A DNA stretch of 64,000 nt from IMG/VR virus record IMGVR_UViG_3300020048_000012; one strand, 5' to 3'. Below the pieces are notes generated by a model. The model was not told the DNA's origin. It saw only the letters and a program-made list of their open reading frames with translations, and did not search any database. Within the stretch, counting starts at the first letter, position 1, and each line of letters begins with the position of its first letter. Positions 4,108 through 35,873 of this stretch are shown here, one piece after another. The stretch is from a virus. A program made the translations under genes and the position numbers.

Positions 4108-4194
4108 TTTAATTGAAGGCCAACTGATTTGGTTATAAGGACAGTTGGCGAAACCTCAGGCTAAGTCAGCTTACGCTGCAAGAGCCCAAACGTA
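4108..4194 (-). pseudogene. displaced original 3' end of tmRNA coding piece (tag end YVWALAA* plus pseudoknot)
   Basis: Minus strand TAC GTT TGG GCT CTT GCA GCG TAA (stop at 4171-4173), stop in hairpin CAGC-GTAA-GCTG, then 8-bp stem GCCAACTG/CAGTTGGC with TGAGG:CCTTA pseudoknot pairing. Confidence 0.7.
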
Positions 4195-4200
4195 TAAATA
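4193..4200 (+). promoter_or_regulatory. late promoter TATAAATA for antisense GIY-YIG gene
   Basis: Exact consensus about 40 nt upstream of ORF 4243. Confidence 0.7.
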
Positions 4201-4242: not shown

Positions 4243-4929
4243 ATGAATATCTATATGCCGTATGTATATAAAGTAACTCATACAACAACACAGCAATTCT
4301 ATATAGGAATGAGATCTGCTAATACTGTAGTTGCGGAAAATGATTTAGGCGTGCATTATTTTACTTCATCTAAATTTGTAAAGTCTAATTTTGATTGTTT
4401 TAAAATTAAAATTTTGGCATACTTTGTCGACCAAGAAGCGGCGTTCGAATTTGAAAATAATTTAATACGCGATAACTGGGGAAATTCTTTATTATTAAAT
4501 AAACACTTTCAGACATCTATGAGCACATTCTCTATGACTGGGTTTGCTCGTCCTGATCAATCTATTCGTAATAAACATACAAAAAGTAAACCAAAAGAGT
4601 CTAGAACATATGTATGTCCTAATTGCCAGATTGAACATATAAAGGTAGAGCATTCACATTTGATACGAAAGGACAAATATTGCAGTAAGAGATGCTCAAA
4701 TCAATCAAATGGCAAAAAGTCTATTCAGCACAATAAAGGCAAAAAGCTCAAAAACACTGGAAGAGTCGCGTGGAATAAAGGAATATCAAATCAACATAGC
4801 GCTGAAAATGGAAAAAGAAGTGCTGCGAAGCAATCTCAAACAATCACTGGAAGAAAAAGAAAATATAGAGATGATGGATCTTGGTTCTGGATTAAAGAGT
4901 CAGTTGATCCTGTTACGAAGCTCAACTGA
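4243..4929 (+). CDS. free-standing GIY-YIG (Seg-like) homing endonuclease with Zn-finger and NUMOD-like tail
   Basis: YVYKVTH...FYIGMR...E...N catalytic pattern; CPNC/CSKRC; AWNKG; antisense to neighbours. Confidence 0.8.
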   Translation: MNIYMPYVYKVTHTTTQQFYIGMRSANTVVAENDLGVHYFTSSKFVKSNFDCFKIKILAYFVDQEAAFEFENNLIRDNWGNSLLLNKHFQTSMSTFSMTGFARPDQSIRNKHTKSKPKESRTYVCPNCQIEHIKVEHSHLIRKDKYCSKRCSNQSNGKKSIQHNKGKKLKNTGRVAWNKGISNQHSAENGKRSAAKQSQTITGRKRKYRDDGSWFWIKESVDPVTKLN

Positions 4930-5238
4930 CAAAGCTCTACTCTATTGCTACTTATGCAGCTTGAAGAGAATATGCATACTCATCGTTTGCTTTTACTTGA
5001 TTTGCTTGATTAACGGTCATCGCGTACCGTGTCGCCGTCTCTACTATTTAGCCCAATCGATCGCCATGTCAGCCCCATCAGAAGAATTCTTGGCGTATCT
5101 GTCTTTGTTACCGGAATTGCACCGTACAAGCGGGATCTGGGATGCCAAACCTGAGGGATTAACCTTCAGAATTCTTCTGGTGGAGCTGCCGGCTTCGAAG
5201 CCGGTTCTTGGACTCCTTCATATTGAAGGGATTACGAC
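4895..5238 (-). ncRNA. ssrA: circularly permuted (two-piece) tmRNA
   Basis: Acceptor piece ends CAGCTCC-A-CCA at 5178; coding piece starts GGGGCTG at 5076 (G3:U70, A73 Ala identity); H2a TTGGGCT/AGTCCAA; tag ORF; 101-nt intervening segment closed by 10-bp inverted repeat. Outer ends approximate. Confidence 0.88.
4952..4990 (-). other. tmRNA proteolysis tag reading frame ANDEYAYSLQAA*
   Basis: GCA AAC GAT GAG TAT GCA TAT TCT CTT CAA GCT GCA TAA; canonical AND resume codons and AA C-terminus. Confidence 0.88.
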
Positions 5239-5244
5239 AATATT

Positions 5245-5454
5245 TTAATTATATCCCAAATCGATATTGTCTGAACAATCTAATTTTGGACATAAAAACC
5301 ACTTAGTTTTACGTAAGTATTCTAACATATCGCTCTTATTCATGGCCATTGCTTTTGATGACATCTCAACAAACACATCGTATCCATGTAATATTTCTTG
5401 CTCTGATTGCCCTTGGCACCATGCCTGATACATTGTTTTTGTGTAGATATACAT
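5245..5454 (-). CDS. hypothetical protein
   Basis: ORF track; late promoter TATAAATA at 5481-5488 upstream. Confidence 0.55.
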   Translation of the reverse strand: MYIYTKTMYQAWCQGQSEQEILHGYDVFVEMSSKAMAMNKSDMLEYLRKTKWFLCPKLDCSDNIDLGYN

Positions 5455-28230: not shown

Positions 28231-28305
28231 TGGTATCCCGTATCGGTTATGCTCCGATCTCAGTAGGGTGAAGGCCTACTTGCCACACTAGCTGCATCAC
28301 GGGAT
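28231..28305 (-). tRNA. tRNA-Glu(TTC)
   Basis: GTAGG-CCTTCAC-CCTAC, CCA; atypical T loop. Confidence 0.8.
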
Positions 28306-28314
28306 ATAAAAACT

Positions 28315-28389
28315 TGGCGATCTTAGCCGGTAACGATCCGGCTCTTCCTCTTAGACAGAGAGGTGTGCGTCCATGAACACTTTAAGACC
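28315..28389 (-). tRNA. tRNA-Asp(GTC)
   Basis: CCTCT-CTGTCTA-AGAGG, G73, CCA. Confidence 0.9.
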
Positions 28390-31763: not shown

Positions 31764-31834
31764 AATATTTGAGCATACTAACTGGATCCATCTCGCACTA
31801 GGTGCATCTCGGGCGATCAATATGCTCAAATATT
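31764..31834 (-). ncRNA. inverted-repeat-bounded RNA cassette M
   Basis: Perfect 14-bp arms aatatttgagcata / tatgctcaaatatt. Confidence 0.45.
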
Positions 31835-31874
31835 GGAGCTGCTACGGAGAATCGAACTCCGCTTGTCGGGATGA
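31834..31874 (-). pseudogene. 3' half of split tRNA-Glu
   Basis: TCAT-CCCGA-CAAG-CGGAG-TTCGATT-CTCCG-TAGCAGC-T-CCA; no 5' half adjacent. Confidence 0.85.
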
Positions 31875-31876
31875 TC

Positions 31877-31951
31877 TGGAGTCGCATACGGGAATCGAAC
31901 CCGTCTCTACAGCATGAAAGGCTGTTGATCTAACCGATAATCTAATGCGAC
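31877..31951 (-). tRNA. tRNA-Glu(TTC), intact, overlapping endonuclease stop
   Basis: ACAGC-CTTTCAT-GCTGT, GTCGCAT/ATGCGAC, CCA. Confidence 0.92.
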
Positions 31952-32616
31952 ATTGTTCTACCTTGTTTAAATCCTTCTGGTATTATATCACTATCTTTTA
32001 TTCTGGTGTTCACTTTACCATCAGTTATCCAAACTTGCTTATATTTTCTTTTATATTCTTTAACTTTTTTACCAAGTAATGAATCAGAAATTTTCTTCTT
32101 CATCTCATCTGTCATTGTGTTCTTAGATTTTTGATGTCTGCCGGCACAAATTCTACTACAAAATTTTGTTTCGGTTTTTATCTTTCTCTCTGTTTCAAAC
32201 TCAATTTTACAACAATCACAGAGATGTTTATATTTTGGTTTATATCCATCGTATAGTTCAAAGTATTTCTTTGTTCCATATTTTCGAGTAACATATTCAA
32301 ATGCGTATTGTAAATCATCTTTACGTAACACATTTACAATATAACCAAAAGATTCAGCAACCTTTGTTTTCTTATCAACAAATTCTTGTTTCTCGTATCC
32401 CTTTGTTTCTATTATCGTTTTTCCATCAGATAATAGAAAATCAGGATAATAAGTTATTCCATCTTTTTCTAACTTTCCAGGAAATCTTTCGAACTCAATG
32501 TGGTGATCTAAACTATAGATCACCCAACACAATTCATAAGTGCTACCGCAATATATTCCATTATAGTATCCACTTTTTGATCTTCCAGAACCTTCTCTAT
32601 ATCCACCTATTGTCAT
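31942..32616 (-). CDS. PD-(D/E)XK-type free-standing homing endonuclease with Zn-finger and NUMOD-like tail
   Basis: YYPDFLL...IIETKG catalytic motif; CDCC/CSRIC; VWITDG; late promoter 32635-32642. Confidence 0.8.
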   Translation of the reverse strand: MTIGGYREGSGRSKSGYYNGIYCGSTYELCWVIYSLDHHIEFERFPGKLEKDGITYYPDFLLSDGKTIIETKGYEKQEFVDKKTKVAESFGYIVNVLRKDDLQYAFEYVTRKYGTKKYFELYDGYKPKYKHLCDCCKIEFETERKIKTETKFCSRICAGRHQKSKNTMTDEMKKKISDSLLGKKVKEYKRKYKQVWITDGKVNTRIKDSDIIPEGFKQGRTMSH

Positions 32617-32634
32617 ATAACACCTCCATTTTAT

Positions 32635-32642
32635 TATTTATA
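32635..32642 (-). promoter_or_regulatory. late promoter TATAAATA for endonuclease gene
   Basis: Exact consensus followed by SD GGAGG. Confidence 0.72.
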
Positions 32643-32651
32643 TAAAATGAG

Positions 32652-32677
32652 TGTCCTAACCGATAGACGATAGCAGC
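32652..32677 (-). pseudogene. 5' half of split tRNA-Glu
   Basis: GCTGCTA-TC-GTCT-ATCGGTTA-GGAC-A; GCTGCTA pairs perfectly with TAGCAGC at 31838-31844. Confidence 0.85.
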
Positions 32678-34209: not shown

Positions 34210-34301
34210 TGGCGGAGAGCAGAGGAGTCGAACCCCATCCCATTTCTGAGAACCTGGTTTTCAAGGCCAGTCGCAGGACCATCCCCGCTGCATTACTCTC
34301 C
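34210..34301 (-). tRNA. tRNA-Ser(TGA)
   Basis: CTGGC-CTTGAAA-ACCAG, long arm, G73. Confidence 0.9.
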
Positions 34302-35054: not shown

Positions 35055-35873
35055 ATGAATATTTATACAACCGTTCCATTTACATATTGCATACGATGGA
35101 CAGCCCATAACAAATGGTACTATGGCGTAAAGTATTCAGATGGATGCTCTCCAAAAGATTTATGGACTACATATTTCACGAGTTCTAAATACGTAAAAGA
35201 ATTTAGAACCGCGTACGGAGAACCAGATTTAATAGAAATTAGAAAAATCTTTGACTCAAAAACTGCTGCGCGCAAATGGGAAAATAAATTTTTATTAAAG
35301 ACAAAAGCCGGCAAGAATCCAAATTCCTTAAACATGGCAAACGCAGGATCGTTCGGTATCAAGATATTTAAACCAAAAAATCTTCCAGGGAATTCTGGAC
35401 CCACTGCAAAAATAAATCAATTAGAAGCGCGCACCATCGAATTGCTCAATATCAAAAAATCTTATATTAAGCAATCTAACAAAGGTCGACGGTGGGTTAA
35501 TTTCAAATTCGTGTTTTTCATTTTCTTCTTAGATGAACTAGAAAGATCTGAGTTTTTGGCACACAATCCAGATTGGTCGTTCGGAAGAAATAGTCAGGAA
35601 ATGAAATCTTCTATATCTAAAAAACTGACAAATGTAAGTAAACCAGTTAGATCTAAAGAACACTGTGAAAAAATTAGTAAAGCTACTAGAGGTAGTAAAA
35701 AGCCAAACTCTGGGCCAAAAAATTACATTCACTATAATAATGGCATCGATGAAATTTTGATTCATCGGACTGACGAAATTCCGAATGGGTTTACTATTGG
35801 AAGAATTCCAGGCAAATATGGAAATGCAAAATTTGGCAGAGATATGAATATATTACGCGATATGATCAAATGA
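35055..35873 (+). CDS. free-standing GIY-YIG-like homing endonuclease
   Basis: FTYCIRW...WYYGVK...YFTSSK...WE...LN; NUMOD3-like RSKEHCEKIS; converges on ligase 3' end. Confidence 0.78.
   Translation: MNIYTTVPFTYCIRWTAHNKWYYGVKYSDGCSPKDLWTTYFTSSKYVKEFRTAYGEPDLIEIRKIFDSKTAARKWENKFLLKTKAGKNPNSLNMANAGSFGIKIFKPKNLPGNSGPTAKINQLEARTIELLNIKKSYIKQSNKGRRWVNFKFVFFIFFLDELERSEFLAHNPDWSFGRNSQEMKSSISKKLTNVSKPVRSKEHCEKISKATRGSKKPNSGPKNYIHYNNGIDEILIHRTDEIPNGFTIGRIPGKYGNAKFGRDMNILRDMIK

Follow-up and report, generated by a model that had tools for sequence, protein, structure and literature searches.

The closest characterized counterpart of the element described here is SegB of phage T4, which recognizes a conserved transfer RNA (tRNA) motif, drives the inheritance of its tRNA region and carries a stop codon that coincides with a site of tRNA processing (PMC2330249). 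SegB has also been reported to drive the segmental amplification of tRNA genes (PMC13096335). The element in question, the Glu cassette, is located in a stretch of viral DNA of 64,000 nucleotides (nt) (IMG/VR record IMGVR_UViG_3300020048_000012), and "the window" always denotes this whole stretch. The cassette consists of a nuclease gene and an intact tRNA-Glu gene, which are located between two remnants of a resident tRNA-Glu gene, and all its coordinates refer to the minus strand. It resembles SegB as a free-standing nuclease of a T4-type tRNA cluster with NUMOD3-type modules and a tRNA-gene motif as its putative target. In both systems the open reading frame (ORF) ends at a tRNA processing site, and the co-inheritance of neighbouring tRNA genes that SegB drives would also apply to the cassette. 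However, SegB has a GIY-YIG domain, recognizes a T-loop motif common to many tRNAs, shows no isotype preference and is located between genes, whereas the Glu cassette encodes a predicted PD-(D/E)XK nuclease, is isotype-specific, resides inside its broken putative target and travels together with a complete variant of that target.

The nearest system in terms of fold and target class is I-Ssp6803I, a PD-(D/E)XK homing endonuclease of a group I intron in a cyanobacterial tRNA-fMet gene. It shares with the Glu cassette the restriction-endonuclease fold of a homing enzyme and the location of its gene in the anticodon region of a tRNA, but there the self-splicing intron restores the tRNA on the RNA level, whereas the Glu cassette is intronless and a second gene copy would maintain the function. 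I-Ssp6803I, which is mentioned in PMC3239194 and PMC3943268, is not among the PDB sequence and fold matches listed for the nuclease of the window, which does not exclude a kinship. Intronless homing has been described for the free-standing phage endonucleases SegF, SegG and MobE (PMC2790892). As proposed for the Glu cassette, a double-strand break in a relative lacking the nuclease gene is repaired from the bearer, and the linked allele is resistant. Elements of this type lie beside their target with long flanking homology, or in a split gene whose products reassemble, whereas the Glu cassette is self-contained, disrupts its putative target and supplies a whole replacement. In the case of nrdA/mobE of phage Aeh1, the gene has been split by the insertion of a free-standing endonuclease. 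Integrase-borne islands and prophages also insert into tRNA genes and restore their 3' end. They have in common with the Glu cassette the insertion into a tRNA gene and the replacement of the displaced tRNA sequence, but the cassette lacks an integrase gene and an att-type repeat, supplies a complete tRNA and breaks its target near the anticodon arm.

Two further systems combine a nuclease with the rescue of a broken gene. In "fractured genes" a homing endonuclease gene is located between split-intein halves (PMC2677866). They resemble the Glu cassette in the presence of a free-standing nuclease in a broken host gene whose function is rescued, but the rescue occurs via protein trans-splicing, whereas in the Glu cassette the halves appear to be dead and the spare gene would do the work. 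The nearest system in logic are the synthetic home-and-rescue (HomeR) and cleave-and-rescue gene drives (PMC7968924). Here the nuclease targets a useful gene, and the drive, which is placed in this gene or replaces it, carries a recoded cleavage-resistant rescue copy. The synthetic drives are engineered, depend on Cas9 and operate in insects, whereas the Glu cassette is a natural, protein-only phage element, and the likeness is thus functional and not evolutionary. Our search of the full-text literature retrieved no account of a tRNA gene split by a nuclease cassette that brings along a replacement, but its coverage was incomplete and novelty is thereby not proven.

The resident tRNA-Glu gene of the window is interrupted after position 27, and an insert of about 777 nt separates its two remnants. 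The 5' remnant (positions 1-27; 32677..32651), delimited by its sequence, comprises the acceptor strand GCTGCTA starting with G1 at 32677, a canonical D-arm (stem GTCT/GGAC) that ends at 32653, A26 (32652) and C27 (32651). An exact match to the T4-type late-promoter motif TATAAATA (32642..32635) is located in an AT-rich stretch at the 5' end of the insert, followed by the Shine-Dalgarno sequence GGAGG (32627..32623) 6 nt ahead of the ATG of a free-standing ORF of 224 amino acids (32616..31942; ORF call), which encodes the nuclease. This ORF shares exactly 10 nt with an intact tRNA-Glu(TTC) gene with an encoded CCA (31951..31877; ARAGORN, Rfam and cloverleaf fold), and its TAG stop codon corresponds to positions 8-10 of the linked tRNA. 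Sequence and alignment place a 2-nt junction (GA; 31876..31875) between the end of the cassette and the 41-nt 3' remnant (31874..31834), which ranges from position 35 to the CCA and contains TCAT as the end of the anticodon loop, then the 3' half of the anticodon stem, a variable loop of 4 nt, the T-arm, TAGCAGC, a T and CCA. The acceptor strands of the two remnants (GCTGCTA and TAGCAGC) are complementary at seven of seven pairs. An integrase-mediated tRNA-targeting island was rejected, since the 777-nt insert contains the nuclease ORF and the linked tRNA and no further ORF, hence no recombinase gene, and the sole repeat at its junctions has a length of 4 nt (TCAT).

Evidence for an insertion comes from relatives in which the same gene is intact. 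An exact search of viral contigs with 25 nt of the 5' remnant retrieved 12 loci, and in 11 of them the sequence represents the start of an uninterrupted tRNA-Glu(TTC) gene. L002 and L001 (labels of this kind designate the viral and metagenome contigs or loci that were compared with the window) hold an uninterrupted tRNA-Glu gene of the GCTGCTA type and share the upstream flank of the window, and L002 is syntenic over about 9 kilobases with 80-98% identity. In the pairwise comparison with L002 the left alignment halts at position 32652 of the window and is resumed at 31874. In the four-way alignment, the match of the left piece to the empty alleles extends to position 27 and that of the right piece begins at position 35; the about 777-nt insert has therefore replaced 7-8 nt, which comprise the 5' half of the anticodon stem together with the first part of the loop. 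The 3' remnant is 83.7% identical over 49 nt to the corresponding part of the intact tRNA-Glu gene of L002. Since both remnants can be aligned with the intact tRNA-Glu genes that L002 and L001 carry at the syntenic site, their occurrence is not due to chance. The locus thus exhibits a presence/absence polymorphism at a single site, which is filled in the window and empty in L002 and L001 within shared flanks. The original prediction, which was made from the letters of the window, had described two tRNA-Glu halves with perfectly complementary acceptor strands, a break in the anticodon arm with loss of a part of the stem, and a promoter, a nuclease gene and an intact tRNA-Glu between the halves, the first 10 nt of the latter overlapping the nuclease stop codon. 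All these elements were recovered at their predicted positions, and the relatives with an uninterrupted GCTGCTA-type gene that it had proposed to look for do exist, so that an empty allele is at hand.

The same cassette is found at an unrelated site. The nuclease of L016 is 90% identical to that of the window, with a synonymous divergence (dS) of 0.38, and the linked tRNA differs at one base. The similarity on the DNA level is confined to 32670..31847 of the window (825 nt, 89.5%), whereas the flanks are unrelated. The shared stretch begins in the D-arm of the 5' remnant, comprises the promoter, the nuclease gene and the linked tRNA, and ends in the T-arm of the 3' remnant. The L016 remnants have an acceptor stem of their own (GCACGAT/ATCGTGT), whose strands are again mutually complementary. 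Because flanks and acceptor stems differ from those of the window, the same cassette is present in two different resident tRNA-Glu genes, which is indicative of a mobile element. The limits of similarity within the tRNA core are those expected for recombination via D-arm and T-arm as short homology arms, which probably took place here.

We retrieved 801 homologues of the nuclease at E <= 1e-3. The 121 loci from viral and metagenome contigs and the window copy yielded 90 unique ORFs, whose surroundings were surveyed with a tRNA-Glu profile and ARAGORN. A full tRNA-Glu gene is located at the end of the ORF on the same strand in 54 of the 83 unique homologues with enough downstream sequence, and the exact 10-nt overlap is present in 28 of the 58 linked tRNAs found in all. 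An orphan 5' tRNA-Glu fragment occurs just upstream of 32 of 80 unique homologues and a 3' fragment after the linked tRNA in 10 of 48; five loci have both remnants with acceptor strands that are complementary at seven of seven pairs. The local acceptor stems differ among dozens of loci. The 5' break of the Glu cassettes is always located at positions 26-30, and the 3' boundary is variable. In L039 and L044 the nuclease gene lies directly between both remnants without an internal tRNA, and the constant part of the insert is thus the nuclease gene and not the tRNA. This recurrence of the pattern half-tRNA, nuclease, tRNA and half-tRNA in many uncultured phages supports the general class of module that had been postulated from the single locus.

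In a subset of the homologues (L035, L038, L041, L045, L046, L054 and L061) the tRNA-Glu gene is encoded on the opposite strand and shares its 3' part with the last section of the nuclease ORF, and a 3' remnant in reverse complement precedes the ORF start. Judged from this arrangement, the cassette is inverted in these loci and substitutes for the 3' part of the tRNA. A megablast search of the locus against 50,697 deposited phage genomes gave no match, and a tblastn search with the nuclease detected its nuclease domain alone, namely in Lak megaphages and one uncultured phage; hence, within the deposited phage genomes searched, no cultured phage appears to carry the Glu cassette. Among the Lak megaphages, Prevotella phage Lak-B5 (L137, record 125908-129270) has a homologue of 331 amino acids (ORF 994-1989, with TAG read as Gln), which is located 12 nt downstream of a tRNA-Glu(TTC) gene with a non-canonical D-stem (GTAT/GTAC). 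The association with tRNA-Glu accordingly extends to gut megaphages.

A sister cassette resides in a tRNA-Ser(UGA) gene. The window harbors at 34301..34214 on the minus strand an intact tRNA with a long variable arm and the anticodon UGA, hence a tRNA-Ser, which was missed by ARAGORN and scored as tRNA-Sec by Rfam (34.9 bits). At the corresponding place (1868-2587) the syntenic L002 contains a 683-nt insert, and the first 41 nt of the tRNA-Ser through the anticodon are followed by TATAAATA, a ribosome-binding site, an ORF of 184 amino acids and a different tRNA-Ser(UGA)-like gene. The C-terminal half of the encoded protein is 40% identical to the nuclease domain of the window (E 5e-25). Since the tRNA-Ser is intact in the window and split in L002, the former represents the empty allele of the Ser cassette. 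The polymorphism is reciprocal: the Glu site is filled in the window and empty in L002, and the Ser site is empty in the window and filled in L002. The type of tRNA-Ser that is intact in the window is the one split in L002 and in L140, whose remnants belong to it. A wider protein search assigned at least 502 members to the Ser nuclease subfamily, and a scan of viral contigs for close relatives of the Ser-type nuclease returned the query itself and one identical copy. In all six sampled contexts the tRNA-Ser(UGA) gene starts within 3 nt of the nuclease stop codon or overlaps it; the 5' remnant ends exactly after the anticodon (A36) in five of them, and a 3' remnant is present in three.

Former replacements have apparently become targets themselves. 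The 5' remnant in L144 (around 600-1560) stems from a tRNA-Ser type that acts as the replacement in L002, and the Glu remnant of L055 (around 359-976) corresponds to the replacement type of L059, L080 and L088. The nuclease of either locus is now linked to yet another variant tRNA. This nesting suggests serial invasions and an arms race between nuclease specificity and tRNA alleles.

The nuclease of the window has an N-terminal domain with a predicted PD-(D/E)XK fold, followed by a zinc ribbon with four cysteines, a NUMOD3-like helix and a C-terminal module of the form W-x-T-D-G...P-E-G-F-x-x-G-R. Its active-site motif comprises P-D at residues 58-59 and E-x-K at residues 70-72. The alignment of 13 homologues shows that E28, D59 (Y-P-D-F), E70, K72 (E-T-K) and the four zinc-ribbon cysteines are invariant, while the C-terminus is one of two alternative modules. 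The AlphaFold2 model of the 224 residues has a predicted local distance difference test (pLDDT) score of 81.6. The structural matches of the model are almost without exception PD-(D/E)XK nucleases; alignment with VIA-align retrieved TnsA (Z 7.3 over 116 residues), Vsr (6.6), the homing endonuclease I-Bth0305I (6.3), and VRR-NUC and Hjc (4-6). Foldseek reported Bax1 with a probability of 0.99 and E of about 0.03 and gave no match to the PDB at E <= 0.001, and a profile search of PDB sequences yielded nothing meaningful. Pfam contains no significant family for the window nuclease, GIY-YIG included; in the homologue P0093 NUMOD3 exceeds the Pfam threshold and DUF559 remains below it, and the PHROGs matches are weak, named "HNH endonuclease/endonuclease" and confined to accessory regions. 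The fold assignment rests on moderate VIA-align Z scores and the motif, because the sequence and Foldseek searches gave no firm match. Model and motif support the affiliation with the PD-(D/E)XK superfamily; the original prediction, which had named this fold, thus holds for fold and motif, but not on the level of a Pfam family.

The ratio of nonsynonymous to synonymous substitutions (dN/dS) between the nuclease gene and five relatives is 0.11-0.14, which indicates that the gene is under purifying selection and maintained rather than decaying. With its intact catalytic residues the protein is predicted to be an active site-specific DNA endonuclease. A GIY-YIG endonuclease of the Seg type was rejected as an explanation, since a Pfam GIY-YIG match is absent and the fold matches PD-(D/E)XK; just the accessory DNA-binding modules are in common. 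At the edge of the tRNA cluster (35055..35873, plus strand) the window harbors a second GIY-YIG-like ORF with the C-terminal motif G...I...IPxGFxxGR, which is similar to the C-terminus of the nuclease. The presence of this motif in both ORFs points to a shuffling of DNA-binding modules between nuclease families within one phage, and such sharing is typical of the modular homing endonucleases of phages.

The motif TATAAATA alone is not enriched in the window (nine matches versus 5.5 expected). However, it is located within 60 nt after the 5' remnant as an exact match in 14 of 36 related loci and with at most one mismatch in 26 of 36, and the promoter assignment is based on this conserved position and not on enrichment. 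A late promoter is also plausible because the phage is T4-like, with a gene set that includes an RNA ligase, a split topoisomerase II and a DNA ligase. For read-through transcripts a hairpin across the promoter is predicted, in which the GGAGG pairs with the tail of the 5' remnant, with a minimum free energy (MFE) of -23.7 kcal/mol (z = -2.0); we regard this pairing as no more than suggestive. The same arrangement is known from T4 homing endonuclease genes (PMC2330249).

The linked tRNA-Glu(TTC) looks functional. In addition to the ARAGORN call it scores 63.1 bits with Rfam RF00005 (cut-off 29), its MFE structure is a cloverleaf, and U8, A14, the D-loop GG, U33, the T-loop TTCGATT and the 4-nt variable loop can be read directly. 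The single base that distinguishes it from its equivalent in L016 contrasts with the dS of the adjacent nuclease gene. Its acceptor stem (GTCGCAT) and its D-stem (GATT/GATC) are both unlike those of the remnant, and the D-stem difference is systematic across the related loci: 22 of 36 5' remnants, but 1 of 58 linked tRNAs, have the canonical D-stem of the bacterial type, GTCT/GGAC (Fisher p = 4.5e-11, uncorrected for relatedness), and GTCT is present on the 5' side of the stem in 30 of the 36 orphan fragments. The linked tRNAs have the D-stems GATT/GATC (24), GTTT/GAAC (8), GACT/GGTC (7), GATA/TATC (4), TTCT/GGAA and others, and the stems differ by compensated swaps of base pair 10:25, 11:24 or 12:23. 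Such swaps would be expected if the nuclease reads the D-stem pairs in the DNA while the tRNA has to fold, and the observed pattern fits this expectation.

Many linked tRNA-Glu also have unusual T-loops, with ATCGTCA or ATCGTTA instead of TTCGAWT (L017, L020, L022, L030, L033, L034, L037 and others). By analogy with SegB, which reads the T-loop, one may speculate that they confer resistance to T-loop-reading nucleases. Some other tRNAs of the phage have an unusual T-loop too, for example tRNA-Asp (window 28315-28389). Next to it, at 28236-28309 on the minus strand, lies a divergent tRNA-Glu(TTC)-like gene called by neither ARAGORN nor Rfam, with the D-stem TGCA/GGCA, the anticodon loop CCTTCAC (C instead of U at position 33) and the T-loop AGCATAA. 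It is of the same type as the nuclease-linked tRNA of L055 and one tRNA of L003, and the syntenic place in L002 is occupied by a tRNA-Glu of the GACT/GGTC type.

The explanation that we consider quite probable is that the Glu cassette represents a free-standing homing endonuclease cassette inside its own target gene, which carries a spare copy of this gene. In mixed infections the nuclease would cut the DNA of canonical tRNA-Glu genes near positions 26-36 and would read at least the D-stem base pairs GTCT/GGAC. The break would be repaired from the cassette-bearing genome with the D-arm on the left and the T-arm and acceptor region on the right as short homology arms, and because of this proposed role of the arms the local acceptor stems would survive as remnants. 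The linked tRNA would escape cutting through one or more changed D-stem pairs (10:25, 11:24, 12:23) that are compensated on the other strand, and it would keep the phage supplied with tRNA-Glu. The 10-nt overlap would tie nuclease and tRNA together; it probably also limits nuclease expression, because RNase P processing of the tRNA would remove the stop codon of the messenger RNA, as has likewise been proposed for SegB. The invade-and-replace strategy put forward by the original prediction is thus in agreement with the filled and empty alleles, the mobility seen in L016, the recurrence among homologues and the Ser subfamily; cleavage of the empty allele and immunity of the substitute are deduced from sequence patterns. 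Taken by itself, immunity of the substitute appears reasonably likely.

Several observations weigh against this explanation. Linked tRNA types change 32 times among the 58 rows of the nuclease tree, albeit with weak support, and nuclease and tRNA are therefore often reshuffled. The idea of a fixed, co-inherited pair was dropped for this reason, and the pair of window and L016 was used instead. The counts across homologues are not phylogenetically independent, and the 3' remnant is kept in just about one fifth of the loci. L049, with a canonical tRNA beside the nuclease, and L110, with a remnant and a linked tRNA of the same D-stem type, are exceptions to the D-stem rule. Finally, the 5' remnant retains the whole D-arm, which alone is hence no sufficient cleavage site; the target site must reach into the anticodon arm, or a degree of self-cutting is tolerated.

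The frequent reshuffling would also be compatible with a SegB-like factor that resides in the tRNA cluster and acts in recombination or anti-defence, in which case the split tRNA would be a by-product of illegitimate recombination and not the result of targeted homing. SegB-type nucleases are indeed associated with tRNA clusters and amplify tRNA genes (PMC13096335). However, SegB lacks an isotype preference, whereas the association found here is isotype-specific, with tRNA-Glu for one subfamily and tRNA-Ser(UGA) for the other. Moreover, remnants and linked tRNA always agree in isotype, and the break points are fixed, lying at positions 26-30 in the Glu family and directly behind A36 in the Ser family, which makes this scenario improbable. 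Considerably less probable is an RNA-targeting enzyme that cuts the tRNA-Glu of the host or a competitor, with a resistant variant of the phage and an incidental gene insertion. The systematic differences of the linked tRNAs in the D-stem, and often in the T-loop, would suit such an enzyme, and the structural matches include tRNA-splicing endonucleases (Z 4-5), but the best matches are DNA nucleases, and the zinc ribbon, NUMOD3 and the C-terminal modules correspond to those of phage homing endonucleases that bind DNA. Cleavage of RNA would also leave the filled and empty alleles and the site-specific insertion unexplained. The same low probability is given to a scenario in which the tRNA is the mobile unit and the nuclease gene a passenger that settled beside it later; it conflicts with the purifying selection on the nuclease gene, with the constant position of promoter and nuclease at the 5' junction and with the two loci (L039, L044) in which the nuclease alone separates the remnants. 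Least probable is an intron or a split tRNA, whose halves would be joined or paired in trans on the RNA level to give a working GCTGCTA-type tRNA-Glu: the acceptor strands are still perfectly complementary and group I introns with a PD-(D/E)XK homing endonuclease gene are known from tRNA genes (I-Ssp6803I, tRNA-fMet), but no group I, group II or other intron family matches the region at E <= 1, the 7-8 nt lost between the halves include positions 28-34, hence the first anticodon base and the 5' half of the anticodon stem, the 3' boundary varies between loci and some loci have no 3' remnant at all, so that a splicing of the halves is implausible.

Another GIY-YIG-like ORF of the window (4243-4929, plus strand; Pfam GIY-YIG 15.8 bits, below the threshold) is preceded by TATAAATA at 4193-4200 and converges with a 3-nt overlap on the 3' end of the transfer-messenger RNA (tmRNA) gene (4927-5287, minus strand). 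The original prediction had supposed the same invade-and-replace strategy at the tmRNA, but a search for duplicated tmRNA pieces around this adjacent ORF detected short, weak repeats and no clear tmRNA remnant.

The design is documented here for PD-(D/E)XK nucleases of T4-like phages, including the empty alleles, the extension to a second isotype and an apparent serial replacement. Homing endonuclease genes are known to spare their host by self-splicing introns or inteins, by intergenic sites, or by split genes whose products reassemble. A complete cleavage-resistant spare of the destroyed gene would, if true, be a further solution, at whose logic engineers arrived independently with the resistance-proof gene drives HomeR and cleave-and-rescue. 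The cassettes would then provide a natural, compact and apparently widespread model for such drives and the accompanying arms races, and their enzymes would form a new family of PD-(D/E)XK nucleases that combine sequence specificity with modular DNA-binding parts. For annotation it would mean that tRNA fragments in phage tRNA arrays are scars and not novel RNAs. On a wider scale, and with about even confidence, we propose that phage tRNA clusters are the home of natural "home-and-rescue" drives, composed of isotype-specific PD-(D/E)XK nucleases (Glu, Ser, possibly others) and a recoded immune tRNA, whose targets and nucleases are engaged in an arms race in which past replacements have turned into targets (L055, L144). 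Such a race would drive the odd D-stems and T-loops of many phage tRNAs, and it would, if true, explain these together with the orphan tRNA halves.

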